The notes beneath the pieces are model-generated. The model ran no database searches and had not been told where the DNA came from. It saw only the letters and a list, made by a program, of their open reading frames with translations. Shown here in pieces: positions 15,540-33,608 of a DNA stretch of 64,000 nt (positions are counted from its first letter, which is position 1; each line of letters opens with the position of its first letter). The position numbers and the translations under genes were made by a program. This stretch comes from Candidatus Omnitrophota bacterium (GTDB taxonomy: Bacteria; Omnitrophota; Omnitrophia; Omnitrophales; Aquincolibacteriaceae), in the NCBI GenBank assembly GCA_022711115.1, contig JAKLFP010000006.1:19699-83698 (forward strand), in the 5' to 3' direction.

Positions 15540-16394
15540 TTATTTGGCAGTCAGAAATTTACCTTTGTCAGTCCCGCAGATCGGGCATTCCTGGAAATTA
15601 AGCTTTTCAACCACATGGCCGCAACCCGGACAAACATAGAAATCATTCCGGCCCGTTTTCCACGCCTTCAAATGATCGATCGCGCTCTTGTAAAGAGCTG
15701 CATGCACCGCTTCCGCTGCTTGGGCATCCTCAAACGCATCCACGGCATCTTCGTTGCCTTCTTTTTCCGCAAGGGCTAAAAATCCAGGATACATCACCGT
15801 GCTCTCATAGGTTTCGCCTTTGAAAGCACTTTCAAGATTCTCCGCCGTGGTTTTCACATTCGGCGGTTCCATCCTTGCGACCGGATGGGCGCCGAGCTTT
15901 TTGATGATTTTGGCATGCCGTTCCAAATGGACTCTTTCAGCCATGGCAGCAGCCCTGAAGAGGCTGGCTGCTTTTCCGTATCCCTCCGCATCCGCCTTTT
16001 GGGCAAACGCTAAATAACGGACATAAGCATTGCTCTCTCCGTTAAATGCTTCTTGGAGATTCGCCACGGTCGTTTTGGGCGCATTGGCCACAGCCGCTTC
16101 TCTCATCGCGGTCAACTCAGCCGCTGAAATAGCCCTTTTGACAACGACTCCTGATGCATAAGAAGGTGTGACTTTGACCGGAGACGCCGGCAGCGTGAAA
16201 GGTTTGAGCACAACAGGTTTGGGGATATTGGGAACCGGAGAAGTTTGCACTTTAGGAACTGCCGACATCTTCGAAGCATTGACGACGACCATTTCCGTAT
16301 TCTTGTTATCAACTTTTTCTGCAGCATAAACTGGCGTGAATCCGGGCAAAAGGACCATAATGAGAATGAGGATTTTTGCAAAGTGTTTCATGTG
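15540..16394 (-). CDS. rubrerythrin-family protein with N-terminal signal peptide and C-terminal rubredoxin-like CxxC..CxxC domain
   Basis: Start MKHF at 16394 follows AAGGAG. There is a signal-like N-terminus, a Pro/Val-rich linker of about 90 aa, two ferritin-like half-domains (EAFNGESNAYVRYL..., ESAFKGETYEST...) and a C-terminal CPGCGH...CPICG. Confidence 0.8.
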   Translation of the reverse strand, partial: HMKHFAKILILIMVLLPGFTPVYAAEKVDNKNTEMVVVNASKMSAVPKVQTSPVPNIPKPVVLKPFTLPASPVKVTPSYASGVVVKRAISAAELTAMREAAVANAPKTTVANLQEAFNGESNAYVRYLAFAQKADAEGYGKAASLFRAAAMAERVHLERHAKIIKKLGAHPVARMEPPNVKTTAENLESAFKGETYESTVMYPGFLALAEKEGNEDAVDAFEDAQAAEAVHAALYKSAIDHLKAWKTGRNDFYVCPGCGHVVEKLNFQECPICGTDKGKFLTAK

Positions 16395-16463
16395 CGGCTC
16401 CTTGTTTGAAGGTGAGCGATTTTCTCTCGTCACAGGGGCAATACTATACCATGGAAATCTTTT

Positions 16464-17618
16464 TTATGAAATTCCGTCTTTTTGAAGCAAAAACCCGAAA
16501 ACGCTTTCGGAAAGGAATTTCCCGCGATCGGTGAACCGGACTTTTCCGGTTTTTTCTTCCAAAAGTTCTTCATCGCACAACTCTTTGACCCGTTTCAGAA
16601 TGGACCCTGAAATCTTTGGAAATTCCGAAAGGGCAATGCCTTCCCGAAGCCGCAATCCTGTCATCAATGTCTCTGTTTCTTTCTCGGCATCTGAAAGGAC
16701 ATCTTGTTGATCGTTCCGCCAAACGGCGCCTTCGCATTTTTGAAGATAGCGATCCAAACCTTCGGCAAATTGATAACGCATGCCGTTGAGATAAGAAAAA
16801 GCGCCCGGCCCAAGTCCGAGATATTCCTGATTGCGCCAATAAATCAGGTTGTGACGCGACGCAAAACCCGCTTTGGAAAAATTGGAGATTTCATAATGTT
16901 CGTAACCTGCACCGGTCAACACTTTGATCGCATCCTGATACATGCCCGCGTGCTCCTCTTCTCCCGGAAGATGAAGCCGCCCTTGTCCTTGAAGCTTTCC
17001 AAACACGGTTTGCGGATGCACTTCGAGATCGTACAGTGAAACCTGAGAGGCCTGCAATGCCAGGCAAGTTTCAAGCGAATGGTGAAAGTCCTCGAATTTC
17101 TGGCCGGGGACCCTGAGCATCAGGTCAAGACTGATATTGGAAATTCCGGCTGTGCGGATCTTCTCAACCGATGAAAATATATCTTTGACGAGATAACGTC
17201 TGCCGAGCCGTTTTAAAATCGAATCTTGGAACGATTGAGCTCCGAGACTGATACGGTTGATCCCGAGCGCCGCCAAAGCGGCCAGCTTTTCCTCATCTCC
17301 ATCGCCGGGATTCCACTCGCAAGTCACTTCCGAGCCTTCTTTAACTTTAAAATGCGCGTGAACCGTTTCCCAAAGATCCGTCATCTCCGCGATGCTCAGG
17401 CAAGAAGGTGTCCCTCCGCCTAAATAAAGCGTGTCAAAACACAGTGACCCATACCGTCTTCGGGCTTCATGAATTTCATGTTTTAACGCGATAAAAAAGC
17501 GTTCCCGAAGCACCGGCGATAGTTCTGCTGTGGTGACAAAATGACAATAATGGCATCTTGTCCTACAGAATGGTATGTGAACGTACAGGCCTCGCAGCAT
17601 ATTCGAGTTATAATTCAT
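16464..17618 (-). CDS. hemW: radical SAM heme chaperone HemW / oxygen-independent coproporphyrinogen-III oxidase-like
   Basis: The HIPFCRTRCHYCHF motif (CxxxCxxC) near the N-terminus. 384-aa HemN-like architecture. Confidence 0.9.
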   Translation of the reverse strand: MNYNSNMLRGLYVHIPFCRTRCHYCHFVTTAELSPVLRERFFIALKHEIHEARRRYGSLCFDTLYLGGGTPSCLSIAEMTDLWETVHAHFKVKEGSEVTCEWNPGDGDEEKLAALAALGINRISLGAQSFQDSILKRLGRRYLVKDIFSSVEKIRTAGISNISLDLMLRVPGQKFEDFHHSLETCLALQASQVSLYDLEVHPQTVFGKLQGQGRLHLPGEEEHAGMYQDAIKVLTGAGYEHYEISNFSKAGFASRHNLIYWRNQEYLGLGPGAFSYLNGMRYQFAEGLDRYLQKCEGAVWRNDQQDVLSDAEKETETLMTGLRLREGIALSEFPKISGSILKRVKELCDEELLEEKTGKVRFTDRGKFLSESVFGFLLQKDGIS

Positions 17619-17768
17619 TCCTCATAACGTAACAAGTGTTTCGCATTGAACTTCGGAAGGTTATTTCTCGAAAAAAATATTAAGAACCGCCTAAATAAAA
17701 TCTGAAAAATGGAACGTTTAGATCGATGAATGGGTCTGCCCTCCCGGCAGAAAACACTCATCGCGCAA

Positions 17769-18218
17769 TTACGCTCTACAACCTCTTTTGGCATCGATGA
17801 GCGTATAGGGATTGAGGCCTTCGCAGCTATATTCACCTGCTTCACTTAAGTAAATGATAGCACCTATATGTTTTCCCGTTGTGAGTCGTTGGGCATAACA
17901 CCCATTAGGATATGCTGCACATCCACAACAATAGAGCCAATTCGGGTGAGCAGGTAAGGGCTGCAACCCAAGTGGATTCATAACGGCCGGATCCGACATC
18001 TGATCATTGTCTATGGTTGGCCATGCATCAAAACCACCTAAATCCATATGCTTGATAATCGCTGACCTCAAACTGCCAAGGAAAGATTGAGCTTCCGCTA
18101 TATACCCATTTTCAGATTGGTCTACGTACCTCGGTAAAATCATAGCCGCCAAAACAGCTATGATAACGACAATAATCAAAATTTCAACAAGAGTAAAACC
18201 TTCCTTTGTTTTTTTCAA
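17769..18218 (-). CDS. type IV pilin-like / pseudopilin (prepilin N-terminal cleavage-methylation domain)
   Basis: N-terminus KEGFTLVEILIIVVIIAVLAAMI is a class III leader with a G|F cleavage site. TTG start with AAGGAGG 7 nt upstream. Cys-rich C-terminus. Confidence 0.8.
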   Translation of the reverse strand: MKKTKEGFTLVEILIIVVIIAVLAAMILPRYVDQSENGYIAEAQSFLGSLRSAIIKHMDLGGFDAWPTIDNDQMSDPAVMNPLGLQPLPAHPNWLYCCGCAAYPNGCYAQRLTTGKHIGAIIYLSEAGEYSCEGLNPYTLIDAKRGCRA

Positions 18219-18345
18219 AAATATACCTCCTTTTAGGGTTAATAAAAATATAACTGGTTTTGGACTTTTCTACTAGTTTTTAATGTGAAATTTATCGAGC
18301 GTTTGAATTCTAAAGGTAGTTCCCAAAACAACCGTTTTAGTCGAT

Positions 18346-18381
18346 CTCGGAAGTTGGCACATCTTTTGCATTTTACTGTAT
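18346..18381 (+). promoter_or_regulatory. candidate sigma70-type promoter for 18405 gene (TTGGCA-N19-TATAAT)
   Basis: Perfect TATAAT about 25 nt upstream of the ATG. A TTGGCA/TTGCAT -35-like hexamer lies upstream at suboptimal spacing. Divergent intergenic region shared with the pilin gene. Confidence 0.3.
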
Positions 18382-18404
18382 AATTTCAATTCACTGAGGA
18401 ATTC

Positions 18405-18875
18405 ATGCCCAAAATCACTGAAAAGATCGAACAGCTTCTGGAAAAAAGAGAATTTGTTTCCGTTGCCACGGCGACCAGGAACGGCGTGCCAAACACAGCC
18501 CCCAAGTTCTTTTTTCGCGCGAAAGGTGATTACATTTATCTGATTGATTATGTCATCGGAAAAACCATCACCAATCTCAAGGAGAACTCTCTTGTTTCCG
18601 TCTCTTTTATGGATTACGAAAGTCTTGAGGCTTACCGTTTGAACGGTAAAACTCAACTCATTGAAAGAGGAAAGGTTTTTGACGCAATACTGAAAGAATG
18701 GGATAAAAAACTTTTAAAGTTCTCCACGGACCGTGTCATCGAAGCTGTGCGGACCGGGAAAAAAAGCCATCATTTCGAGTTGGAGATGACCGAGAGGTTC
18801 GTAGTTTTGAAGATCAAGATCACCGATGTCATCAAAATCGGCCGGCGCGGCGACATCTGGAAAGAATCCAACTGA
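18405..18875 (+). CDS. pyridoxamine 5'-phosphate oxidase-like FMN-binding family protein
   Basis: The N-terminal LLEKREFVSVATATRNGVPNTAPKFFF pattern is typical of the PNPOx-like split-barrel family. The overlapping antisense ORF 18273..18656 was judged spurious. Confidence 0.65.
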   Translation: MPKITEKIEQLLEKREFVSVATATRNGVPNTAPKFFFRAKGDYIYLIDYVIGKTITNLKENSLVSVSFMDYESLEAYRLNGKTQLIERGKVFDAILKEWDKKLLKFSTDRVIEAVRTGKKSHHFELEMTERFVVLKIKITDVIKIGRRGDIWKESN

Positions 18876-18984: not shown

Positions 18985-20574
18985 ATGACTTTGGACAAAC
19001 AAAAACTTTCCAATCAACTTTTCAAGATCAAAGACCTGAACATCATCCTTCAGGAATCCCATGACCCGGCCAAACAGCTGAAAAAAGCCCTTGGCCCCCT
19101 GGATTTGATCCTTTTAGGGATTGGCGCCATTATTGGTGCGGGTATTTTTACGGTCATCGGTACTGCCGCAGCCGGAGATCTGGTAAGACCCGGCGCAGGA
19201 CCTTCCATCATTTTGTCTTTTGGACTCACAGCCATCGCGTGTGGATTTGCCGCGCTTTGTTACTCCGAATTCGCGGCCATGGTTCCGATTTCAGGAAGCG
19301 CTTATACCTATTCTTATGCGACCTTCGGTGAGTTGATCGCGTGGATCATTGGCTGGGACCTCATGCTTGAATACACGGTCGCCAACATCGCGGTAGCTAT
19401 CAGCTGGTCAGGTTATTTCACGGAGTTTCTTCGCGGTTTTGGGATCCAGTTACCGCCCTGGGCCTCGATTGATTTCCGTTCCGCGTTCCAGGGATTTGAA
19501 AAAGCATCTATGCTCTTAAGTCAAGGCATGACTTTTGAACAGCTTAATCCAGGTCTCCAAAAAGCCTGGTTCGCGGTTCATAACGCGCCGCACCTTTTCG
19601 GAATGCCGCTCATCTTGAATATTCCGGCCTTCCTGATCGTTGCTATGATCACAACGCTTCTTGTGATCGGAATCAAGGAAAGCGCACGTTTCACCTCGGT
19701 CATGGTTGCCATCAAACTCCTCGTGCTCACTTTTTTTGTCGCGGTAGGACTTTTTTATGTCAAACCTGAAAACTGGTCCCCTTTCGCACCAAACGGATTC
19801 GCGGGGATCAAAACGGGTGCCGCGATTGTTTTTTTTGCTTATATCGGTTTTGATGCCGTGTCGACAGTAGCGGAAGAAACCAAAAATCCGAAGCGAGATC
19901 TCCCAATCGGGATTCTGGGGTCGCTTGCCATCTGCACGGTTATTTACATCATCGTTTCCGCGGTCTTTACAGGACTCGTTCCGTTTTCCATCCTCAAAGA
20001 CACGCTGGCGAGCCAAAAAGCCGAAGCCCTTTCTTTCGCCATGAAGCATATCAACCTCCATTGGGCAACCGGCATCGTCGCGGCCGGCGCGGTGGTGGCT
20101 CAAACCGCGGTACTTCTGGTCATGCAACTGGGACAATCCAGGATCTTTTTTTCCATGTCGCGCGACGGTCTTTTACCGCCTGTTTTTTCAAAAGTCCACC
20201 CGAAATTCAAAACACCTTATATCACCACCATCGCGACAGGCCTTTTTGTCGCTTTAACAGCCTCTTTTTCCAACATTGATGAGATGGTAGATCTGACGAA
20301 CATCGGAACGCTTTTTGCATTCGTCCTTGTTTGCTTTGGTGTCGTCATTCTTCGCGTCAAAGAACCGCATAGGCACCGGACCTTTAAAGTCCCGCTAAAT
20401 CCGGTCATTCCGTTGTTGGGTGTTTCGACTTGTATTTTTTTGATGACCGGCCTCCCCACGATTACCTGGATCCGGTTTGTGGTGTGGCTCTTGATAGGAT
20501 TTGTGGTTTATTTCTTCTACAGCATGAAACACAGCCTGCTCCGCAAAACCCAAAGCCTGCCGCATAAAACTTGA
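18985..20574 (+). CDS. APC-family amino acid permease
   Basis: 529 aa with about 12-14 TM helices. A GxG-rich first helix (LGIGAIIGAGIFTVIG) is typical of APC transporters. Confidence 0.9.
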   Translation: MTLDKQKLSNQLFKIKDLNIILQESHDPAKQLKKALGPLDLILLGIGAIIGAGIFTVIGTAAAGDLVRPGAGPSIILSFGLTAIACGFAALCYSEFAAMVPISGSAYTYSYATFGELIAWIIGWDLMLEYTVANIAVAISWSGYFTEFLRGFGIQLPPWASIDFRSAFQGFEKASMLLSQGMTFEQLNPGLQKAWFAVHNAPHLFGMPLILNIPAFLIVAMITTLLVIGIKESARFTSVMVAIKLLVLTFFVAVGLFYVKPENWSPFAPNGFAGIKTGAAIVFFAYIGFDAVSTVAEETKNPKRDLPIGILGSLAICTVIYIIVSAVFTGLVPFSILKDTLASQKAEALSFAMKHINLHWATGIVAAGAVVAQTAVLLVMQLGQSRIFFSMSRDGLLPPVFSKVHPKFKTPYITTIATGLFVALTASFSNIDEMVDLTNIGTLFAFVLVCFGVVILRVKEPHRHRTFKVPLNPVIPLLGVSTCIFLMTGLPTITWIRFVVWLLIGFVVYFFYSMKHSLLRKTQSLPHKT

Positions 20575-20613
20575 TTCGAGATATTATTTTTTAGTTTGGT
20601 TTTTTGGGTAGGA

Positions 20614-21507
20614 TTACTGTCTTTTTTCCAGAGCCAGGAAAATGCCATGGAGAATGGCTTCAGGCCGCGGCGGGCAGCCGGGCACATAAATATCCACAGG
20701 AACCGCACGATCCACGCCGCCCGCCACCGCGTAATTTCCGTCAAACATGCCGCCGCTAATCGCGCAGCTCCCGCAAGCCACCACAAGCTTCGGAGAAGGT
20801 GTTGCCTCGTAAGTTTTAACTAGCGCGAGTTCCATCTGCCGCGTCACAGGACCGGTCACAAGCAGCATGTCCGCGTGTCGCGGAGAAGCCACAAAATGGA
20901 CACCGAACCGTTCCGCGTCATAAATAGGATTGGAAAGATTCACGGCTTCGACTTCGCACCCATTGCACGAACCCGCGTCAACTTCGCGGATATGGAGAGA
21001 TCGGCCGAAAAGTTTTTGAATCTTTTGGCTTAATGACTCGCCGATTTCTTCCAGGGTCAGTTTGTCAGCAAAATCACCCTGCCGGAAGGCTGAGATTTCA
21101 TCCGGTTTTTTTTTGAAGTAAATTTTTTCCGTAGAAACAAAGGCTTTGTCTTTCCGGACATCAGACAAAGCGGAAGATAGTTCATGGCATAATTCTTTTT
21201 TAGTCCGGGCCGCAAGTTCGAATTTCCCTTTGAAGGAGATGGCCTGATACGGACAAGCTGGCTCGCAAAGCCCGCAGAAGATGCAGTCTCCGTAGGAAAT
21301 ATAAAAAGAACGCCTGGCTTCCTTTGCGTGGTCTGCGATCGTTAAGGCCTTGGTCGGGCATTGAAGCACACATTGCCCGCACCGCGTGCATTTGGCCGGA
21401 TCGATCTCAGGCGCGCCGAGAAATCCTTCGGTTGTTTTGGCAGCATGCGGCGCATACGGCAGCGTTGCTTTTCCAACGGCTAAGTTTTTCTTAAGAATCC
21501 TGAACAC
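20614..21507 (-). CDS. fused 2x[4Fe-4S] ferredoxin (HycF/HyfH-like) + NuoB/HycG-like small subunit of group-4 hydrogenase-related complex
   Basis: N-terminal CTRCGQCVLQCP and CIFCGLCEPACP. C-terminal GSCNGCEVE, FVASPRHADMLLVTGPVT, VVACGSCAISGG and YVPGCPPRPE match HycG/NuoB. Confidence 0.9.
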   Translation of the reverse strand: MFRILKKNLAVGKATLPYAPHAAKTTEGFLGAPEIDPAKCTRCGQCVLQCPTKALTIADHAKEARRSFYISYGDCIFCGLCEPACPYQAISFKGKFELAARTKKELCHELSSALSDVRKDKAFVSTEKIYFKKKPDEISAFRQGDFADKLTLEEIGESLSQKIQKLFGRSLHIREVDAGSCNGCEVEAVNLSNPIYDAERFGVHFVASPRHADMLLVTGPVTRQMELALVKTYEATPSPKLVVACGSCAISGGMFDGNYAVAGGVDRAVPVDIYVPGCPPRPEAILHGIFLALEKRQ

Positions 21508-21625
21508 TTAAAACTCCTTTTATTTTTTACCCGGAGGTTTCTGTCATTGCGAGGGTACGCAGTGCCCGAAGCAATCTCAGAGATCACTTCGTCGCTTCGC
21601 TCCTCGTGATGACGAGAAAGCCACC

Positions 21626-23203
21626 TTACCGGTCATTGCCGGCATAAGACAAATTGAAACTTTTATTGATCAAGGGAAAATCCGGTACGATATTTTCCAG
21701 GACCGCGTATTGGATCAAGGGCCAGTTCACAAAAGAGGGTGAATGGATTTTCCAGCGCGTGATTTTCCCTTCACGGTCTGTGGCAATCCAATGAAAACAT
21801 TCCCCGCGCGGAGACTCCACATAACCCAATGCGCTCTTCAGCGGCAAAATCGGCCTCGCCTCACTGCACAAAGGACCTTCGGGCATGGTGTGAAGGGCGT
21901 CATAAATCAGCTTGAACGATTCATAGACTTCTTGGATCTTTACTTTCATCCGACTCTCGACATCGCCTTCCTTGAACACAGGAACCATGAAAAAAAGCTC
22001 TTTATATGCGGCATAAGGATGATCGCGCCGAAGGTCCTGGTCGACGCCGGAAGCGCGCGCGACCGGGCCAACGCCGCCAAGTGTCTCAGCCACTTCCTTT
22101 TTGACTTGGCCTGTGCCTTCAATGCGGTCTACCAGGGAATCCACCTGCCAGAGGATTTGAATGATCGAATCAAAATCCGTTTTAATCTTCTGGATTTCTT
22201 CCAGAAACCTTTGTTTTTGGACTCCAGAAATGTCCTTTCGCACACCGCCCAAAGCGATGACGTTTCTCAGGAGGCGCGTGCCGGCCAGCCGTTCGTTGAT
22301 GCGTAAAAGAGATTCCTTGAGCCGCATAAGCTGGCTTGCGCCAAAACTGAACGCCGCGTCCAGGGAAATCCCGGCAATATCGCTCATGTGGTTGTGAAGG
22401 CGCTCCAGTTCAAGAAAAATAACGCGAAGGAATTGTGCCCGCTCGGGCACTTGAATATCGGCCAGAGTTTCCAGGGCCTGTGCACAGGCGGCGGCATGAG
22501 AAAAAGAATTGTCTCCGGAGATACGCTCCGCAAGGCAAAGGAGATGAGACGGTGATTTTCCTTCGCCTGCTTTTTCCGTGCCTTTGTGGGTGTAAAAGTG
22601 CCGGATCTCGAGCTTCACGATACTTTCGCCGGCCGAGGAAAAACGGAAATGACCGGGTTCGATGATGCCGGCATGAACCGGCCCGACCGGGATTTCGAAA
22701 ATACCTTCTCCTTCCACGCGTTCAAAAATGTATTGGCCGGAAACCCGCGGAATCTTTTGTTGAGATTGAAAATCTTTTTTAAACGGGAAATGGCCTCTGG
22801 GCCAGTCCTCGTGAAACACAAGCGATCTGGGATCCGGGAGGTTTCCCGCGACCAAGCCAAAAAGATCCTGAATCTCACGTTCCTGCCAATTGGCTTGCGG
22901 CAGAAAAGGAGTGACGGAAGGAAACACAGGATCGTTTTCCGGGATCCTGGCTTCAAGGATGATAAAAGAATCCTGCTGCGTATGGGAAAAAACATAAGAA
23001 AGCGTAAAGGCCTTGTTTTCCTTCCGTGTGTCCGAGGCAAAGAGAAAAACAAGGCGCATGGGAAGAAGTCCCGTGAGAAAGCCGACTGTTTTCAGAATCG
23101 CGTCTCGCGGGATAAGCACATGACATTGCTTTTCGGTCCCGCCTTCCAGTTCGCGGATCGTATTCCCGAATTTTTCTTTCAAAGCTTCGCAGACCATTTT
23201 CAT
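21626..23203 (-). CDS. fused NuoC-NuoD / HycE-like large subunit lacking the [NiFe]-binding cysteines (Ehr-type)
   Basis: The VGPVHAGIIEPGHFRF block is conserved. The N-terminal RxCGxCxxxH is replaced by RISGDNSFSH, and the C-terminal DPCxxCxxR by NLSYAGNDR. Confidence 0.9.
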   Translation of the reverse strand: MKMVCEALKEKFGNTIRELEGGTEKQCHVLIPRDAILKTVGFLTGLLPMRLVFLFASDTRKENKAFTLSYVFSHTQQDSFIILEARIPENDPVFPSVTPFLPQANWQEREIQDLFGLVAGNLPDPRSLVFHEDWPRGHFPFKKDFQSQQKIPRVSGQYIFERVEGEGIFEIPVGPVHAGIIEPGHFRFSSAGESIVKLEIRHFYTHKGTEKAGEGKSPSHLLCLAERISGDNSFSHAAACAQALETLADIQVPERAQFLRVIFLELERLHNHMSDIAGISLDAAFSFGASQLMRLKESLLRINERLAGTRLLRNVIALGGVRKDISGVQKQRFLEEIQKIKTDFDSIIQILWQVDSLVDRIEGTGQVKKEVAETLGGVGPVARASGVDQDLRRDHPYAAYKELFFMVPVFKEGDVESRMKVKIQEVYESFKLIYDALHTMPEGPLCSEARPILPLKSALGYVESPRGECFHWIATDREGKITRWKIHSPSFVNWPLIQYAVLENIVPDFPLINKSFNLSYAGNDR

Positions 23204-24672
23204 GAAACCACTCCTCCAGCCACGCGGCTCGCTTCCTGAAGCAGATGCTGCAACGGCCTTGGGATATAAAAACCCATCACCACGATCACGATCATGCCGA
23301 CCACAAGCACACTATCCATGAGAAAACTTTTTGCAGGCATTTCGGTTTTTTCGGTTTCGCCAAAAGTCATCCGGTTCGCTTGCCGGAGGAAACCGGTAAA
23401 GATAAGCGCCAATAAAACAAGCAGAATGGCGCACGGAATAAATTGTTTGGCCAAAAAGCCCGCGCTTAAAATACAGAATTCGCTGAAGAAGACGCTGAAA
23501 GGCGGCATGCCGGCGATGGCGAGAACTCCGAAAAAGAATATCGTTCCCAGAAAAGCGTTTTTGCGGAAAATCCCTTTCACCTTGCTGATCTCTTTGCTGT
23601 GAAAGAAATAGTACAAATGACCGGAAGTGAAAAAGAGCAGGGATTTCGTGAACGCGTGATTCACGATGTGGAGAATCGCGCCGTACAAGCCCAGCGTGCC
23701 GCCAAATCCAAGGCCCACGGCCGCGAGCCCCATATGCTCCACGCTTGAATACGCCAACAAACGTTTGTAATCCGCTTGCTCCATGATAAAAGGTACGGCA
23801 ATGGCCACCGAGAGTACGCCAAAGACAATCAATAGTGTGTCCGAAAATGCTGAATCCGTTGCGACTTTGGTCAGGATATGAAACCGCAAAATACCGAAAG
23901 TCGCGCAGCTCAAAAGCACGCCGGAAAGAAGCGCGCTCACAGGGGCGGGTGCTTGGCTGTGTGCATCCGGCAGCCAGGCATGGAACGGCGCAAGGCCGGC
24001 CTTGGTGCCATAGCCCACAAGAACAAAAATAAACGCAAGCCGGATGATCTGTGGATCCAGATATTTTGCTTTGGCGAGCAGAAAGCTCCAATTAAGTAAA
24101 AGCCCGGTTTCCCCGGATGCGACTTGTTCGACCGCAGAGTAATAGACCAAAATGACCCCAAAAAGCGCGAGTGCGATGCCCACGCTGCAAAGAATCAAGT
24201 ATTTCCACGCGGCCTCGATCGAACTTTTCTTGTCGTCCACATTCACTAAAAATGATGACGCGAGCGTGGTTCCTTCGATCGCTATCCACATCACCCCGAG
24301 ATTATTGGAAAGCACGGTCAGGAGCATGGTGAAAAGAAAGAGATGAAAAAAGAACGCGTAGCGGCGAAGTTTGGCCGGCGGGATGCCGGTCTCGCCTTCC
24401 TTGAAAAGATAACCGCCCGCATAGATCGCGGAAAGCAGTCCCACGCTCGGGATCAAAAGGACAAAAACGGCGGACAAGGCGTCCATCATAAGACTTTCTT
24501 TAAACGCGAATATGCGCGGGCCTGAAAAATTCCCGAAAACAAAAAACCAGGCCCCGATCGCGGACACGGCCGCACCGGCCATAAAGGTCAGACGCGTGGT
24601 CCTTTTGGGACAAGGGACCAGACACAGAAATGCAAAAGCAAGCGGTGTCCAAAGTATGTGATCGATCGTCAT
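23200..24672 (-). CDS. NuoN/NuoM/HyfF-like antiporter-type membrane subunit
   Basis: 490 aa polytopic protein. The GYGTKAGLAPFHAWLPDAHSQAPAPVSALLSG block is typical of the Mrp/NuoLMN antiporter family. Confidence 0.85.
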   Translation of the reverse strand: MTIDHILWTPLAFAFLCLVPCPKRTTRLTFMAGAAVSAIGAWFFVFGNFSGPRIFAFKESLMMDALSAVFVLLIPSVGLLSAIYAGGYLFKEGETGIPPAKLRRYAFFFHLFLFTMLLTVLSNNLGVMWIAIEGTTLASSFLVNVDDKKSSIEAAWKYLILCSVGIALALFGVILVYYSAVEQVASGETGLLLNWSFLLAKAKYLDPQIIRLAFIFVLVGYGTKAGLAPFHAWLPDAHSQAPAPVSALLSGVLLSCATFGILRFHILTKVATDSAFSDTLLIVFGVLSVAIAVPFIMEQADYKRLLAYSSVEHMGLAAVGLGFGGTLGLYGAILHIVNHAFTKSLLFFTSGHLYYFFHSKEISKVKGIFRKNAFLGTIFFFGVLAIAGMPPFSVFFSEFCILSAGFLAKQFIPCAILLVLLALIFTGFLRQANRMTFGETEKTEMPAKSFLMDSVLVVGMIVIVVMGFYIPRPLQHLLQEASRVAGGVVS

Positions 24673-24676
24673 GCCT

Positions 24677-25336
24677 TCATCCTTTCAAAACCGTCATATC
24701 GTCCGCGTCAATGCTTTCAAAAGCGCCGCGGATTTTAAAAACAAAAACACCCATAATCACCACACCCACCAGCGCATCGAAAAAGACCCCTATTTCCACA
24801 AGAAGAGGCATGCCAAACGTAATGGTCACACCCATAAGAAAAAGACCGTTTTCGATGAGGAGCAGTCCGAGGACCTGATTGATCGCCTTTTTGCGGGTCG
24901 TCATCATTAACATGCCGAAAAAAATCGTGGAGACTGCTAGCGGGATAAATTCGCCAAACGAAACCGATTTCAGGACCTTGCCTTCCCCTGTCACATAAAA
25001 GGAGACAAACACGAGCAGCACGGCCAGAAGCAGCGTGAACGGGATGTTGACATAACTTTCGATCTCTTTGCGGATCCCGAGCCGGCGGATAATCCTGAAA
25101 AAGACTTGCGGGATTAAGATGGTTTTCAGAGCCAGTGTCAAGAACGCGGGAATCAACAAGTGCTCTACATGATTTGTTAAAGCAATGAAAGCAGTAATTA
25201 GTGCGAGCAAAAAAGAATGGGTGGCATAAGCGCGAATGCTGGCCCCGATCTGCGGAGCGGCCAGCATCCAAAAGGAAACGATCAAAAGCATCATGCCGAA
25301 AAAGTGAATCAGCGAGGGCACGAATTCCGTGTTCAT
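24677..25336 (-). CDS. HyfE-like small membrane subunit (hydrogenase-4 component E family)
   Basis: 219 aa with about seven TM helices. Its position between the NuoH-like and NuoN-like genes matches the hyf order. Confidence 0.7.
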   Translation of the reverse strand: MNTEFVPSLIHFFGMMLLIVSFWMLAAPQIGASIRAYATHSFLLALITAFIALTNHVEHLLIPAFLTLALKTILIPQVFFRIIRRLGIRKEIESYVNIPFTLLLAVLLVFVSFYVTGEGKVLKSVSFGEFIPLAVSTIFFGMLMMTTRKKAINQVLGLLLIENGLFLMGVTITFGMPLLVEIGVFFDALVGVVIMGVFVFKIRGAFESIDADDMTVLKG

Positions 25337-26283
25337 ACGCCCCTCCCGATGATGAGTTGTCCCAGAAGAGACAAAACGGCCAGGACAAAAGCGACGGCCA
25401 AAAGGTCCGGAGCTCTAAAAAGCCGCAATTTCGCGGAATGAATCTCGATCCAGCCAATCACAAAAGCCAGGAAAAAGATTTTCAATAGATAAAGTCCGAT
25501 GCCCACGCCAAAAGCCGCGAACCCAGACATACCGGAAAAATTCCAAGGAAAGAAAAGATTGGCGAGCAGTGTCAGAAAAATAATCTGTTTGATCTGATGG
25601 CTCCATTCAATCAAAGCCAGATAACGGCCGGAATATTCCAGGATCATGGCTTCGTGAATCATGGTCAGTTCCAAATGTGTGGCTGGATTATCCATCGGAA
25701 TTCGTCCGCTCTCCGCGATGGTGACAATCAAAAGCGCGCCAAACGCCAAGCTCGTAAAAAATAAAATTTGAATGGGTGATTGCCAGGAAAAATACGAAAC
25801 AATCCCGTCAAGCGACAGGCTTTGGGTCCGGAAACTCAAAGAAAAAAACGAGAGAAGAAGTGCCGGCTCCGCAAGCGATGAAAGTGTCATCTCACGGCTC
25901 GACCCCATGCCTCCGAACGTGGTTCCGGTATCCAACGCGGCCAAAGTCAAAAAGAAACGTCCCAGGGCCAGGAGGTAAACAAAAACAATCACATCGCCTG
26001 TAAAACCAAAAAGAGAGACTGCTCCGGACACCGGCGTTAAAGAGGCTGCGCTAAGGACCGACGCAAAGAGCACGAAAGGCATCGCGTGAAAAATCCATGA
26101 TGCGGCTTCCGAGATCACCATATCTTTGTGGAAAAGCTTCCAAAGGTCCGTATAGACCTGCACCGGGCTAGGACCTACACGGTTTTGCGAGATAGCTTTC
26201 ATCTTTTTGATGAACCAGCTGAGTAACGGCGCGAGGGCCATCAGAAAAAGCACTTTGGCGCATGCAAAAAAAATGGAGATCAT
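25333..26283 (-). CDS. HycD/NuoH-like membrane subunit
   Basis: 316 aa with eight TM helices and a formate-hydrogenlyase subunit-4/NuoH-like profile. 4-bp overlaps with both flanking genes. Confidence 0.8.
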   Translation of the reverse strand: MISIFFACAKVLFLMALAPLLSWFIKKMKAISQNRVGPSPVQVYTDLWKLFHKDMVISEAASWIFHAMPFVLFASVLSAASLTPVSGAVSLFGFTGDVIVFVYLLALGRFFLTLAALDTGTTFGGMGSSREMTLSSLAEPALLLSFFSLSFRTQSLSLDGIVSYFSWQSPIQILFFTSLAFGALLIVTIAESGRIPMDNPATHLELTMIHEAMILEYSGRYLALIEWSHQIKQIIFLTLLANLFFPWNFSGMSGFAAFGVGIGLYLLKIFFLAFVIGWIEIHSAKLRLFRAPDLLAVAFVLAVLSLLGQLIIGRGV

Positions 26284-28478
26284 GAGGAATGCCCTCCCCA
26301 GAAAAGAAGAAGGAGAATCAACGTAATAAATATGTAACTGAGGTAGAGTTGAATATGGCCGGTCTGGATGTGTTTGGCTTTTTGTGAAAGACTGGAAATA
26401 AGATTGGCCAAGGGTTTATACACCCATTCATCCACAGGCTGCGTGATCTTTGTTTCAAAGCGTTGGGCAGTGCGAAGCAATTCATGCCCTTCATCTTCCA
26501 GCTCCACGTGCCGGGTCGGCTGATAAAGGAAAGAAAAAATCCTGCGTAACGGTTTGGAATAACCGGTCGCGGAATATTGCATGCGCGGCTCCAGCCGGGG
26601 CATACCGCAATCCCAGCTTGGCCCGATGCGGACCTTTTGTTTCCCCAGGAAGATCCGAAGCAATACCGCGGACCCAAATATGAATCCCAAAAGAATAAAG
26701 GCTAAAAGCAAAGGAGAAAATTGGCTCGCTTTTGATGGGGATATCAAAAAAAGTTTCTGAACAACACTTTCCATCGGAAGATTGACATTTGAAAAGGTAT
26801 TCGTGATTTTCCATAAAATTTTCACAACCCACGGAGCGGACAAGGCAAGCGCCAAACAACTCGTGGCCAGAATCCCCATGCCCAGTTTCATGGAACCGCT
26901 GATTTCATGCGCTCCGGTCGCATGCTTCGAACGCGGCATCCCTAAAAAGCTGATCCCGAAGGCCTTTACAAAACAAGTGGCAGCCAAAGCGCCGGCAAGT
27001 CCAAGCAGCGACGCCAGAACCGGCAAAAAGAAATGCATGCCCGTGCTTCCTGTCTCAATCCCAAGAAGAATCGCAACAAAAGTCATCCATTCACTGACAA
27101 ACCCGTTCAAGGGAGGCAGCGCGGAAATAGCGACTGCGCCTATCAGAAAATACGCGGCCGTCCAAGGCATTTTCTTGATCAAGCCTCCTAGTTGTTCCAT
27201 ATTCCGCGTGTGAGTTCCAGAAAGCACAGCCCCCGCACCAAGGAAAAGGAGACCTTTGAAAACAGCGTGATTCAAGATATGGAAAAGAGCCGCAACCAAC
27301 GCAAAGGCTGCATAAAGGGTTTGCCCCTGTGTTTTAAAAGCAAGACACATGCCGACTCCGAGAAGGATAATCCCGATATTTTCAATGCTGGAAAACGCCA
27401 GGAGCCTTTTTAAATCATGTTCCATTAATGCGTAGAGAATGCCCAGAAGCGTGGAAACAATCGCGATGGCAAGGATCAGATTCCCCCACCATCCGGGTGT
27501 GGCACCCAGAAAATCCAAAAGAAACCGCAAAAACGCATAGATGGCGGTCTTGATCATCACGCCAGACATAAGCGCTGACACATGGCTCGGCGCTTGAGGA
27601 TGCGCCTTGGGCAGCCAGATATGAAGCGGGATGATCCCGGCCTTAGTGCCGAATCCCAGAAGTGCCGAAAAGAAAATAATATTTTTAAAAACAGGCGAAA
27701 GAAAGCCCGCGCCGGCACGGAATGAGTCGAATGAAAAAGAGCCGGTATGAATATAAAGAAGCCAGAAGGCAGTCGAGATGAACACGGTCCCGATATGCGT
27801 CATGACCAGATAAAGAACCCCGGCTGATCGCGTCTCCGGTTTTTCATGTTCAAAAATCACAAGAAAATAGGAAGCCAGGGACATGAGTTCCCAAAAAAGG
27901 AGAAAATAAAAGGCGTTCCGGATCGTGACCACGAGAAGCATGGCCAGGATGAAAAGGTTATAGAAAAAACCCAAAAGGGCGATGTTTTTCTTGTCCTGGC
28001 ATCCATTTTCTTTTGACAAAAGGTTGCCAGGACTATCCTGACTTTTATTTTCTTTTTCTTTATGGTAGTCAGGATTGCCCCAATTTCCACACTGTGGAAA
28101 TTGATTGGTATTGGGACTAGTCCAATTAACCTTTGAATTTTTTGATGGAGAATTGGATTTGCCCTGATATTCACGGGTATAACCGATCGCAAAAAGAGAG
28201 GTGGCAAGCGAAAGGAAAGAAATCACAAAAAGAAAGAAGGCGGAAAAGAGATCCGCTTCCAACCGGAGAGGACCGACCGGAAGGCTTCCCGCAATTTCAA
28301 GCACCCAGGATTTCCCGGTCAAAAGGATATAAAGTGCAAAAACAACACCTGCCGTTCCTGCCAACGAGGCTAAAAGATGCGTCGAACGGTTCGCCTTTTC
28401 TCCGTGTTGTTCAAAAAGAAAGCCCGCGATTGCCCCTAAGATATGAAGAGAAATTTGCGCAAAAAAGAAAAATGCCAT
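26280..28478 (-). CDS. HyfB/HycC/NuoL-like membrane subunit with about 65-aa hydrophilic insertion
   Basis: The GFGTKAGIIPLHIWLPKAHPQAPSHVSALMSGVMIKTAIYAFLRF block matches the NuoL family. An unusual hydrophilic loop (YTREYQGKSNSPSKNSKVNW...) sits after helix 3. Confidence 0.9.
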   Translation of the reverse strand: MAFFFFAQISLHILGAIAGFLFEQHGEKANRSTHLLASLAGTAGVVFALYILLTGKSWVLEIAGSLPVGPLRLEADLFSAFFLFVISFLSLATSLFAIGYTREYQGKSNSPSKNSKVNWTSPNTNQFPQCGNWGNPDYHKEKENKSQDSPGNLLSKENGCQDKKNIALLGFFYNLFILAMLLVVTIRNAFYFLLFWELMSLASYFLVIFEHEKPETRSAGVLYLVMTHIGTVFISTAFWLLYIHTGSFSFDSFRAGAGFLSPVFKNIIFFSALLGFGTKAGIIPLHIWLPKAHPQAPSHVSALMSGVMIKTAIYAFLRFLLDFLGATPGWWGNLILAIAIVSTLLGILYALMEHDLKRLLAFSSIENIGIILLGVGMCLAFKTQGQTLYAAFALVAALFHILNHAVFKGLLFLGAGAVLSGTHTRNMEQLGGLIKKMPWTAAYFLIGAVAISALPPLNGFVSEWMTFVAILLGIETGSTGMHFFLPVLASLLGLAGALAATCFVKAFGISFLGMPRSKHATGAHEISGSMKLGMGILATSCLALALSAPWVVKILWKITNTFSNVNLPMESVVQKLFLISPSKASQFSPLLLAFILLGFIFGSAVLLRIFLGKQKVRIGPSWDCGMPRLEPRMQYSATGYSKPLRRIFSFLYQPTRHVELEDEGHELLRTAQRFETKITQPVDEWVYKPLANLISSLSQKAKHIQTGHIQLYLSYIFITLILLLLFWGGHSS

Positions 28479-28577
28479 TGCTTCTTAAAACCATCCTTCG
28501 ACTGCTCATGGTAATCATCTTGAGATTATTTCAGTCTTTTATTTATATGTCCGAATGTGTAGGAATAAAATTTTATG

Positions 28578-28603
28578 GGTATGTATTCATATATACCCAT
28601 CAA
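28578..28603. promoter_or_regulatory. inverted repeat ATGGGTAT-N10-ATACCCAT in the leader of the Ehr-like operon
   Basis: 8-bp perfect arms, about 100 bp upstream of the HyfB-like start, between the REC gene and the operon. Confidence 0.3.
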
Positions 28604-28696
28604 AAGGAGCTGTCAATAAAGTATTTCGGGAAGATCAACCCTGAAAAAATTTTTATCGCTTCTCCGGATTTTTAAAAACCGCCTCTGAAAACACGG

Positions 28697-29092
28697 CTAT
28701 GGGGTCGGTTTATTTTCTTGTTGCGGGATTTTGTGCAGATTCCTTTTGATGGCCTCGTAAATATCATTCATGTCTCCGGTCTTAACCACAAAATCCGTCA
28801 CACCTTCAAATTGGAACATGTCTCTCATCGGCTCATAACCGGTCATGACAACGATAGGAATCTTCCTGAGATCTTCAAATCTCCTGAGGCGGCGCATGAA
28901 GGTCAAACCATCCATGGTAGGCATTTTGATGTCCAGAAGAATCAAATCCGGAATTTCGTTTTCGGCTTTTTTGAGACCTTCTTCCCCGTTATTTGCCGTC
29001 CAAACCTGATATCCCCGCCTCTTAAGCTGCACTTGCAGGCAATCCAAAATATCTTGGTTATCATCAATGGCTAATATCTTTTCGCCCGGCAT
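28697..29092 (-). CDS. stand-alone response-regulator receiver (CheY-like REC) protein
   Basis: 131 aa with the phospho-acceptor Asp in LILLDIKMP and the conserved K in VVMTGY. Confidence 0.85.
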   Translation of the reverse strand: MPGEKILAIDDNQDILDCLQVQLKRRGYQVWTANNGEEGLKKAENEIPDLILLDIKMPTMDGLTFMRRLRRFEDLRKIPIVVMTGYEPMRDMFQFEGVTDFVVKTGDMNDIYEAIKRNLHKIPQQENKPTP

Positions 29093-29223
29093 TTTTCTTC
29101 CTTTCCTCCCTCAAACAACCGTCTAAAACAGCTATAACTTACCGCATCACGCGTCTGAAAGCCACTAAGTTTTATCGACCATCTCATCCTTTTTTGAACG
29201 GCTCTGAAGAAGTTTTGGCAAAA

Positions 29224-29931
29224 TTAATTTTTCTGAAAACCTAAAATGAGAAATTCAGGGTCCTGAACCGGAAAGGGAACAGGGTGTTTTTCAAGATATT
29301 CCTCGGTAAATGGCGGATAAGCTTCCAACAGTTTTTTATAACCACGCTCCACAAAAAAGTTGCTGTATTCTTCGGGCTCGCGGATAAAAACAGGTACAGA
29401 GTCGCTTTCCGCTAACGCCATCGTCCCGACACGGGGAAATTCCCTGGAGTCGAAATCCCTGAATGTCATCTTTTCTTTCAAAAGATTGGAAACAAACGGA
29501 GGGTTGAACGCGGAAAGCACAAAGAGCCCCGTAGGTTTGAGCAATCGGTCAAGCTGGCGGATCGTCACATCGATTTCCCGGATAAACTGAAAAACCAGAC
29601 TTGAAATGATCACATCAAATTTTTCTTTTTCAATCTTTTCGATCGGACCGGCAACAAGATTCACCCCGGAGGGCAACCCTTTCCCGGCTGTCCGAATCAT
29701 CTCCTCGGACGTATCCAATCCTGTGACCCGGCATCCCACGGCATGCAGCTTTTTACAAAGACGGCCGTTCCCGCAACCGAAATCCAATACCCGGACATGC
29801 TTCATGATCGGAAAAGATTTCTGGATCAGTTCGATCATGACCGGATAAGCAAGCAGGACATGGTCCGCAATCCCCTGAGGCATCTCCTCTTCCCTGCCGA
29901 ATATCCCGGCCAATTTGTCCCATAAGTTCAT
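29224..29931 (-). CDS. class I SAM-dependent methyltransferase
   Basis: Motif I VLDFGCGNGRL, followed by VTGLDTSEEM. Confidence 0.85.
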   Translation of the reverse strand: MNLWDKLAGIFGREEEMPQGIADHVLLAYPVMIELIQKSFPIMKHVRVLDFGCGNGRLCKKLHAVGCRVTGLDTSEEMIRTAGKGLPSGVNLVAGPIEKIEKEKFDVIISSLVFQFIREIDVTIRQLDRLLKPTGLFVLSAFNPPFVSNLLKEKMTFRDFDSREFPRVGTMALAESDSVPVFIREPEEYSNFFVERGYKKLLEAYPPFTEEYLEKHPVPFPVQDPEFLILGFQKN

Positions 29932-32531: not shown

Positions 32532-33608
32532 ATGAAAAAGAGATTTGGGGAATTAGGGATACTCCTGTTGTTTATTGGACTTTTTCTTTGTGGAACACAA
32601 GGGGGATTTTCTATGACTGAAAAATCGAAGAATGAACCAAAAAAGGGGCTGCCATGCAGCCTTCCGATGAGCGATGCTGAGCTCCGGAAGCTCTTGACAC
32701 CGGAGCAATACCGCATCATGCGCCAGAATGGGACGGAAACAGCTTTCCAGAACGCATTCTGGAACAATAAAAAGCCCGGCATTTATGTGGATGCCATTAG
32801 CGGGGAACCTCTCTTCAGTTCCACGGATAAATTCGATTCCGGTACAGGCTGGCCCAGCTTCTTCCAGCCGATCGAAAAAAATAATGCTATTGAAAAGCCC
32901 GATTCGAGCTATGGCATGGACCGAATGGAGGTCCGCTCCCAAAAAAGCAACTCTCATTTGGGGCATGTTTTTCCGGACGGTCCGAAACCGACCGGCCTCC
33001 GCTACTGCATCAATTCCGCTTCCTTGCAATTCATTCCTTCCGAAGATTTGGAGAAAAAAGGTTATGGCCAATATACCTATCTTTTCTCGAAAAAAGATCC
33101 GCCTAAAACAGATTCAAAAAAAATGACCCAGATCGCCGTGTTCGGTGCCGGATGTTTTTGGGGTGTCCAATCCACTTTTGAGAATTTGCCGGGCGTTCTG
33201 AAGACCACGGTTGGGTACACCGGCGGCACTGTCAAAAATCCAACTTATGAACAGGTTTGTACTCACACCACAGGTCACGCGGAAGCGGTTCAAATCGAAT
33301 TCGATCCTTCCAAAATCTCCTATGAAAAACTCCTCGATTTGTTCTGGAGCATTCACGATCCCACAACTCTTAACCGTCAAGGCCCTGACGTGGGAAACAA
33401 TTACCGCTCTGTGATTTTTTATCAAAATGCAGAACAGGAAAAAACCGCAAGGGTTTTGAAAGAAAAACTGCAGCGCTCCGGAAAATTCCATAATCCGGTC
33501 GTCACCGAAATCTCGCCGGCAAAAGAATTCTACAAGGCCGAAGAATATCATCAACAGTATTATCAGAAAAAAGGCCTGAAACCCATTTGCCGTTTGCCTA
33601 AAACATAA
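32532..33608 (+). CDS. msrAB: bifunctional peptide-methionine sulfoxide reductase MsrB-MsrA with signal peptide
   Basis: N-terminal hydrophobic signal. MsrB blocks ([26 protein letters not shown]) precede MsrA blocks ([13 protein letters not shown]). Confidence 0.9.

Follow-up and report, generated by a model that had tools for sequence, protein, structure and literature searches.

What does a complex with the build of an energy-converting hydrogenase do once all four cysteines that would hold its [NiFe] centre are gone? The question is raised by six minus-strand open reading frames (ORFs), all intact and lying head to tail at 20614-28478 of a 64-kb stretch of contig JAKLFP010000006.1 (positions 19,699 to 83,698; hereafter the window, numbered from its first letter), from the Candidatus Omnitrophota assembly GCA_022711115.1. 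A first-pass annotation of this DNA, made from the letters alone, had named six gene families in the order of hydrogenase 4 and formate hydrogenlyase (FHL), and Pfam and NCBIfam agree with that architecture. We hold it very probable that the locus encodes a non-hydrogenase complex of the Ehr (energy-converting hydrogenase-related) type. What such a complex might do is a more tentative matter: we favor a ferredoxin-to-acceptor pump, though at somewhat less than even odds, and to the whole explanation, identity and mechanism blended, we would assign a probability of about 0.55.

The Ehr family is already known, named and common, and this locus adds one more member to it. The name was given for Geobacter sulfurreducens GSU0739-45, and cysteine-less clusters have been described from Geobacter, Mycobacterium tuberculosis (Rv0082-87), ammonia-oxidising archaea, Nitrospira ('HyfBCEFGI'), Acidithiobacillus, Margulisbacteria and bacteria of the candidate phyla radiation. 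The literature places Ehr next to the 'group 4f' hydrogenases and defines it by the traits found here, among them the build of a group-4 hydrogenase, a cysteine-less large subunit and the lack of maturation or formate dehydrogenase genes alongside (PMC6349859, PMC10284858, PMC10432482). With this definition the 120 closest proteins and the signatures published for 'hydrogenase-like' clusters of Acidithiobacillus (SGD[TS][TS][AV][GA]Y and NLSYSGHDL; PMC6002666) all agree, bearing out the first-pass assignment. Like described Ehr clusters, the window complex has the same six-subunit gene set in a stand-alone operon, lacks both CxxC motifs and shows the same signature replacements. It differs in that its lineage has a HycF-like two-cluster domain, which about three quarters of cysteine-less loci do without, fused to the small subunit; in its SGDNS variant of motif 1, common to Methanoperedens and Methanomassiliicoccales relatives; in the C-terminal Arg that its large subunit retains; and in a private 56-residue insert in its HyfB-like subunit.

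The large subunit has lost its nickel ligands

EhrL (525 residues; 21626-23203, minus strand) fuses a NuoC-like part to a HycE/NuoD-like part, with Complex1_30kDa, Complex1_49kDa and NiFeSe_Hases domains detected by Pfam in the single protein (PF00346 at 5e-48). It aligns over its full length with Escherichia coli HycE (PDB 7Z0S_E, E = 6e-92, 312 bits), compared with 169 bits for MbhL and 108 bits for MbsL (6U8Y_L). The AlphaFold model of EhrL (pLDDT 82) likewise finds 7Z0S_E as its best fold match (TM-score 0.87, 33% identity), followed by E. coli NuoCD (TM-score 0.83, 22% identity).

The HycE alignment places RISGDNSFSH opposite RVCGICGFAH and NLSYAGNDR opposite DPCYSCTDR, and across 92 aligned sequences HycE C241, C244, C531 and C534 correspond to EhrL S229, N232, S519 and G522. 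All four [NiFe] cysteines are replaced, as first proposed, and the motif misalignment that had been feared is ruled out. The window motifs ERISGDNSFSH and NKSFNLSYAGNDR constitute the Ehr replacement signature, as in 71 cysteine-less loci (see below). A NiFe(CN)2CO centre is held by four thiolate ligands, which serine, asparagine and glycine cannot supply. For this reason EhrL is not a [NiFe] hydrogenase, and, judged by its residues, the complex cannot hold a Ni-Fe centre or turn over H2. The protein also ends at R525, the counterpart of HycE R537, with no C-terminal extension; in HycE the extension beyond R537 is removed by the HycI protease, which cuts after that arginine.

Consistent with the first-pass statement that formate dehydrogenase (Fdh), hyp and endopeptidase genes are not adjacent, a Pfam search of the annotated ORFs over the whole 64-kb window turned up no Fdh, hyp or hycI gene. 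E. coli HycI, HycH, HypA and HypB used as phmmer probes against its six-frame ORFs also had no match, a weakly informative result, as the same probes were blank at all loci, the cysteine-bearing relatives included.

Around the vacated site much is kept. The residues of the proton path defined in the FHL structure (PMC9474812) are retained (R466, H272, E425 and R383, equivalent to HycE R478, H284, E437 and R395), and so is the beta1-beta2 loop PVGPVHAGIIEPGHFRF, including H177 and E182. Family-specific residues are D231, a nearly invariant new Asp, together with D282 and N517. A second, divergent Ehr type was seen in another Omnitrophota genome (fen_1318; L054, 10001-11569), with 41% identity and the motifs ERVCGDAAFSH and SYAANDL; its large subunit has Gly in place of the otherwise invariant Glu of the beta1-beta2 loop.

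Small subunit and membrane arm

EhrS (297 residues; 20614-21507, minus strand) is a fusion of a HycF-like ferredoxin domain with two [4Fe-4S] clusters and a HycG/NuoB-like small subunit. Pfam places two Fer4 domains before Oxidored_q6, while NCBIfam assigns residues 1-130 to an FHL iron-sulfur subunit model and residues 182-291 to NuoB models; the best PDB matches are MbhJ, HycG and HycF, with MbhJ the best for the NuoB-like domain. The first-pass annotation was right that the small subunit keeps its cluster cysteines: two CxxCxxCxxxCP motifs and the proximal-cluster motif CNGC...GSC...GCPP account for all 8 + 4 of them. The CxxC is of hydrogenase type, not the tandem CC of NuoB. EhrS is without the Cys4 site of HycF, on which HycB docks in FHL, and without the C-terminal extension of HycG, and no HycB/HyfA or FdhF gene was found in the cluster or in the 64-kb window. 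Because the Cys4 site and the HycB/HyfA/Fdh genes are absent, we expect the distal cluster to be accessible to a soluble donor. The ferredoxin-NuoB fusion is also present in Omnitrophota relatives, the two parts being separate genes in Methanoperedens, and it recurs in Vicinamibacteria, Bacillota, Acetobacterium and the cysteine-bearing Thermincola enzyme; it is not the stand-out feature that it had been taken for.

The membrane arm begins with a HyfB/NuoL-like antiporter-type subunit with an ND3-like C-terminal extension (732 residues; 26280-28478, minus strand), which scores 749 bits against NCBIfam NF005086 'hydrogenase 4 subunit B' (cut-off 667), contains Pfam Proton_antipo_M and finds HycC (7Z0S_C) as its best PDB match. 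It keeps E197, K279, H400, H404, K408 and E463, equivalent to NuoL E144, K229, H334, H338, K342 and K399, as well as the WDCG motif of the ND3-like loop. Between its conserved EYQ and KKNIALLG lies an in-frame, low-complexity insert of 56 codons (27993-28160, minus strand), KSNSPSKNSKVNW...ENGCQD, that is absent from all seven aligned homologs, including the 72%-identical one from Omnitrophota, and that contains a perfect 10-bp inverted repeat (28081-28103).

Next come a HycD/HyfC/NuoH-like membrane anchor (316 residues; 25333-26283, minus strand; Pfam NADHdh, 1e-41) and a HyfE-like small membrane subunit with a NuoK-like C-terminal half (219 residues; 24677-25336, minus strand). In the former, the loop between transmembrane helices (TM) 5 and 6, PMDNPATHLELTMIHEAMILEYSG, is a clade-wide signature common to the cysteine-bearing relatives; the latter is alignable with E. 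coli HyfE and matches NCBIfam NF008556 'hydrogenase 4 membrane subunit' over its full length (2.5e-29), with a weak Pfam Oxidored_q2 match. The second antiporter-type subunit, HyfF-like (490 residues; 23200-24672, minus strand), reaches 483 bits against NCBIfam 'hydrogenase 4 subunit F' models, contains Proton_antipo_M and keeps E133, K224, H335, H339, K343 and E398. Both antiporter-like subunits have the TM5 Glu, TM7 Lys, TM8 His/His/Lys and TM12 Glu. The operon is predicted to be complete and functional, encoding an Ehr-type membrane complex.

Among solved structures, that of E. coli FHL (hydrogenase-3, HycBCDEFG with FdhF, 7Z0S) is the closest for the large, small and HyfB-like subunits. 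With FHL and hydrogenase-4 (HyfABCDEFGHI) the window complex shares the fusion of NuoC with the large subunit, the ND3-like extension on an antiporter subunit and the proton-path residues. Unlike them, it has neither the [NiFe] ligands, the L1 (RxCGxCxxxH) and L2 (DPCxxCxxR) motifs being absent, nor HycB/HyfA, FdhF, the two HycF and HycG elements or HyfD, and it is without hycH, hycI or hyp genes nearby in the window; an Asp of the canopy is also exchanged for Asn, a point to which we return.

Relatives of the locus and the positions that changed

A single scan of species-representative genomes gave at least 600 matches, from which 80 loci of many bacterial and archaeal phyla were retained; adding one Omnitrophota and one Methanoperedens locus makes a set of 82. 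Of these, 71 are cysteine-less and 11 keep ERxCGxC..H and ELCYxCxDR. Relatives among the matches listed include Nitrospirota, Thaumarchaeota, Methanosarcinales, Bacillota and Patescibacteria. Ehr is very widely distributed in bacteria and archaea, with nitrifiers, methane oxidisers and M. tuberculosis among its hosts.

The nearest proteins are 60-99% identical, and those with names belong to Candidatus Omnitrophota; Methanoperedens and ANME-2 archaea supply the next tier, at about 50%. In an Omnitrophota relative with 72% identity (GCA_022709525.1) all six genes recur, the small subunit is fused in the same way and the flanks are largely alike, and the operon is syntenic in an independent 99%-identical assembly. 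Among the 120 closest proteins the C-terminal cysteine pair is absent from all with a complete C-terminus, and nearly all have ER[IV]SGDNSxxH and NKSxxLSYSGND[RM].

Every complete locus has the gene order HyfB-HyfC-HyfE-HyfF-NuoCD-like, with the NuoB-like gene last or first. In none of the 80 related loci does a HyfD-like gene separate the HyfC-like gene from the HyfE-like one, the place of hyfD in E. coli, and all 80 have the NuoC-NuoD fusion, so that two further features singled out by the first-pass annotation prove to be normal throughout the clade. Some related loci have an additional HyfB-like gene, and two have a second tandem Ehr cluster; these are Nitrospirota loci (L041 and L070) in which the two six-gene clusters are of different subtypes (SGTSS, SGDTT). 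A Methanomassiliicoccus locus (L008) has a smaller Ech/Mbh-like cluster directly after its Ehr cluster.

The cysteine-bearing six-gene hydrogenases, for example those of Thermincola, Ectobacillus, Desulfotomaculum and Chloroflexota, belong to the same clade. Their gene order is identical, their large subunits are 40-46% identical, their beta1-beta2 loop (PVGPxHAGxIEPGHFRF) and NuoH-type loop are the same, and some have the ferredoxin-NuoB fusion; they keep ERxCGxC...H and ELCYxCxDR, whereas the window protein has S, D, N, N, S and G at these places plus D282. They probably represent the 'group 4f' class, an assignment taken from the literature. Placed on a neighbor-joining tree, as had been suggested at first pass, the enzymes with and without the cysteines fall into a single clade, separate from E. 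coli HycE and HyfG (99% bootstrap). The window protein groups with Omnitrophota (70%), and deep nodes have 4-43% bootstrap. The best matches outside Omnitrophota, at about 50% identity, are from Methanoperedens; the neighbor-joining grouping with them is unsupported, and we claim neither a sister relationship nor inter-domain transfer.

The same comparison shows how narrow the change has been. In a strict conservation screen of 11 cysteine-bearing against 77 cysteine-less large subunits, only C229S, G282D, E517N, C519S and C522G emerged, to which inspection of the ligand motifs adds position 231 (Ala/Val to Asp) and position 232 (Cys to Asn, Thr, Ser or Glu). D282 aside, all systematic differences of the large subunit lie within the former NiFe-binding motifs (229-232, 517-522). 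The replacements are themselves conserved: among the cysteine-less proteins the position of the first cysteine is Ser in 74 of 77, D231 is present in 72, S519 in all 77 and G522 in 76. The NuoH-like subunit has no systematic difference between the two groups and the NuoB-like domain just three, all conservative. Conservation across the family extends to the ligands of the proximal cluster and to the proton path of the active site. The clade comparison narrows the functional change down to seven positions, of which all but one lie in the two motifs that formerly bound NiFe.

Descent and selection

We read these relationships as descent from a Hyf/'group 4f'-like six-subunit [NiFe] hydrogenase. 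The first-pass annotation had leaned on the proposal that Ehr complexes are intermediates toward complex I, and here it does not hold up: the beta1-beta2 loop is of hydrogenase type, the quinone Tyr and His are missing, the small subunit has CxxC and not CC, and every subunit tested is closer to FHL/MBH subunits than to those of complex I. With complex I the window complex shares a modular, L-shaped ancestry, the NuoCD fold and the charged residues of the antiporters. It differs in identity (21-23%), in the absence of NuoE-, NuoF- and NuoG-like genes, and of NuoA and NuoJ, from the six-gene cluster, in the missing quinone ligands, in the N2 motif (CNGC instead of tandem Cys) and in having two antiporter-like subunits rather than three. 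On such features the complex is best described as a derived hydrogenase, not a complex-I-like intermediate.

Ratios of nonsynonymous to synonymous substitution rates (dN/dS) for all six genes are 0.07-0.14 against the 72%-identical relative, where dS is saturated, and 0.03-0.18 against the 99%-identical one, for the two genes that differ. Selection on the operon is purifying.

It might still be supposed that the locus is a decaying or silent remnant of FHL or Hyf, or a true hydrogenase with unconventional ligands, as the high overall homology to Hyf and Hyc subunits would allow and as the odd low-complexity insert in the HyfB-like gene could suggest. We regard this as extremely improbable. None of the six ORFs is broken, dN/dS stays at 0.03-0.18, the residues that took the place of the cysteines do not vary from phylum to phylum, which is the opposite of decay, and four thiolates, a C-terminal processing extension and any hyp or hycI gene in the 64-kb window are all wanting. 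A relic, in particular, is unlikely because many phyla have conserved the new residues, the coupling machinery has stayed as it was and selection on the six genes is strong.

Proposed mechanism and its alternatives

That the cysteines gave way to an equally conserved Ser/Asp/Ser/Gly set, with the coupling and pumping machinery unchanged, argues for a conserved new function in the pocket and indicates which residues to mutate. We hypothesize that the exposed HycF-like domain is the docking site of reduced ferredoxin, or of a comparable soluble donor of low potential, and that from the two [4Fe-4S] clusters of this domain electrons would pass to the proximal [4Fe-4S] cluster of the NuoB-like domain. 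Electrons and protons would then meet an acceptor in a remodelled polar pocket lined by S229, D231, N232, D282, N517, S519 and G522, with protons arriving by the retained path E182/R466/H272/E425/R383. Translocation of H+ or Na+ may be coupled to this turnover, which the conserved beta1-beta2, NuoH-type and ND3-type loops would relay to the two antiporter-like subunits. The missing HycF Cys4 site and the missing HycB/HyfA/Fdh genes fit direct use of a soluble donor, and Omnitrophota make reduced ferredoxin through PFOR (PMC10066038).

Several points weigh against this mechanism. We found no biochemical characterization of any Ehr complex in the literature, and no acceptor can be named from sequence. 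In the AlphaFold monomer of EhrL, confidence is low at residues 161-206 (beta1-beta2) and in the last seven residues. The canopy acid, HycE D529, is strictly conserved in hydrogenases and complex I; in EhrL it is Asn, and proton delivery must consequently differ. The small subunit of about 50 of some 66 cysteine-less loci is just a NuoB-like protein of about 170 residues, without the HycF-like module. A ferredoxin-fed mechanism is consequently not general for the family, and electron throughput is possibly not its core function. There are two architectural forms of Ehr, with and without a ferredoxin module, and their mechanisms need not be alike.

The loss of that module in about three quarters of the cysteine-less loci, leaving one cluster-binding subunit, is hard to square with through-electron transfer and would suit a different proposal, that Ehr is an Mrp-like cation/proton antiporter whose peripheral arm is a structural cap or an Fe-S redox switch gating transport. 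The transport residues are fully conserved, the new pocket abounds in Asp, Asn and Ser, in the manner of ion- or proton-binding sites, and there is no genomically linked donor or acceptor enzyme: no partner oxidoreductase recurs in the flanks of the 82 related loci, which share only generic response regulators, ArsR-like regulators and ABC ATPases. We nonetheless consider an antiporter of this kind quite unlikely. The window lineage keeps and fuses a full two-cluster ferredoxin domain at dN/dS of 0.03 (99%-identical relative) and 0.14 (72%-identical relative), the ligands of the proximal cluster and the active-site proton path are conserved family-wide, and we know of no precedent for an Fe-S redox switch gating such an antiporter. 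A more specific variant, very unlikely in our view, draws on the invariant Ser/Asp/Ser/Gly set and the retained Glu/Arg/His proton path to make the pocket a newly evolved proton- or cation-loading site, with the Fe-S chain as a redox switch that would sense the ferredoxin pool and gate the Mrp-like antiporter; if true, Ehr would be a redox-regulated ion transporter on a hydrogenase scaffold.

Other alternatives keep the electron flow of the ferredoxin-to-acceptor pump and name its acceptor. The complex could be a minimal complex I of Fpo type that oxidizes ferredoxin, reduces a membrane quinone (menaquinone) in the former NiFe pocket and pumps protons. A NuoH-like subunit, a NuoB-like proximal cluster and a NuoD-like fold are all in place, and many Ehr hosts are quinone-using respirers (Nitrospirota, Thaumarchaeota, Acidobacteria, Betaproteobacteria). 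Quinone reduction nevertheless seems unlikely to us. Both head-group ligands of complex I are absent (Nqo4 Tyr87 is G230 and His38 is I181), the CxxC of the small subunit is of hydrogenase type, FHL/MBH scores exceed complex I scores for every subunit tested, and the NuoH-like subunit, unchanged from the cysteine-bearing sisters, gives no sign of a newly evolved quinone tunnel. Ehr loci also occur in Patescibacteria, Acetobacterium and Dehalococcoidia, which to our knowledge are generally held to be without quinones.

Within Omnitrophota the quinone question touches on annotation. Menaquinone/ubiquinone genes occur in some orders of the phylum, in which 'complex I' was scored by PF00346 alone, a family that EhrL also matches (PMC10066038). 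In Pluralincolimonadales and Zapsychrales, PF00346 was the basis on which that survey assigned 'respiratory complex I' (PMC10066038), and since the cysteine-less EhrL itself matches this model (at 5e-48), some of these assignments may be Ehr complexes. More widely, 'complex I' or 'hydrogenase' calls made from PF00346 or PF00374 alone may count Ehr complexes. The present locus, coming from an uncultivated organism, leaves the question of Ehr function as testable as before.

The remaining candidate acceptor is polysulfide or sulfane sulfur, or another small soluble molecule, reduced directly at the proximal [4Fe-4S] cluster or close to it, in the way proposed for Pyrococcus MBS (Mbx). MBS is the one characterized hydrogenase-derived complex that has given up H2 chemistry and kept ferredoxin input and ion pumping (PMC6349859, PMC9474812), and so sets a precedent for a hydrogenase-derived pump no longer making H2; the window complex, too, retains a ferredoxin-type input domain and the proximal cluster. 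P. furiosus MBH and MBS resemble it further in ferredoxin-type input through a NuoI-like protein and in MbhJ, the best PDB match of the NuoB-like domain. Apart from this analogy nothing speaks positively for sulfur reduction, and we hold it very improbable here: the MbsL match is weaker than that to HycE (108 versus 312 bits), the large subunits of MBH and MBS being far more distant, and the many extra Mrp-type subunits of these complexes (MBS has thirteen subunits, among them MbsA-G) are absent from the six-gene cluster, next to which no further PF00361 or Mrp gene was found. Nor do sulfur-metabolism genes flank the operon.

Operon layout and neighborhood

The first-pass annotation described 4-bp overlaps between most genes. 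This is correct for three of the five junctions, among them the start of the NuoH-like gene, which overlaps the stop codon of the preceding gene by 4 bp; the other two are a 4-bp gap and a 118-bp gap between the large- and small-subunit genes. The 118-nt spacer (21508-21625, minus strand) is predicted to form a long, imperfect hairpin of about 93 nt (-41.1 kcal/mol, z = -3.7 against shuffles), followed by the ribosome-binding site of the small-subunit gene, AAAGGAG ahead of a GTG start. An Rfam scan of 20000-29500 gave no match, for the spacer or otherwise, and the hairpin has no second copy within the 64-kb window. The gap is of the same length in the independent 99%-identical assembly, which comes from another sample (L090), and only 20 bp in the 72%-identical relative. 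The hairpin could serve in processing or attenuation within the operon, or could be a small palindrome that was inserted there.

Upstream of the first gene, sequence inspection and consensus matching of the non-coding region (28479-28696, minus strand) found promoter-like hexamers, TTGACA and TATATG separated by 17 nt (28577-28616, minus strand), overlapping an operator-like inverted repeat, GGGTATAT...ACATACCC. One consensus promoter match lies at 28553-28525; these are consensus matches alone and not evidence of function. Immediately upstream of the operon is the gene of a receiver-only response regulator (28697-29092), followed on that side by genes for a methyltransferase, an SDF symporter and an MFS transporter; a relative (L002) is without the response regulator and adjacent methyltransferase genes at the corresponding position. 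The other flank encodes an amino-acid permease, a PNPOx-like protein, a HemN-like radical SAM protein and a rubrerythrin.

Oxidative-stress-type genes lie on both sides of the operon (15540-18875 and 32532-33608): rubrerythrin, PNPOx-like, HemN-like radical SAM and a fused MsrB-MsrA. The rubrerythrin, PNPOx-like and HemN-like genes are syntenic with the operon in other Omnitrophota assemblies (L001, L002, L090). Among the archaeal loci, a universal stress protein (Usp) gene directly follows the small-subunit gene in L004, and the clusters of L007 and L009 are likewise flanked by homologous small ORFs, which in L009 lie on the opposite strand; these loci are from Methanoperedens, Methanosarcinales and Methanomassiliicoccales. 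Farther along the window, a single ORF of 7070 residues occupies 42624-63836 on the minus strand, its sole Pfam match over both halves being a domain of about 60 residues resembling the RNA polymerase alpha C-terminal domain; giant ORFs are a reported trait of Omnitrophota ('big ORF' column, PMC10066038).

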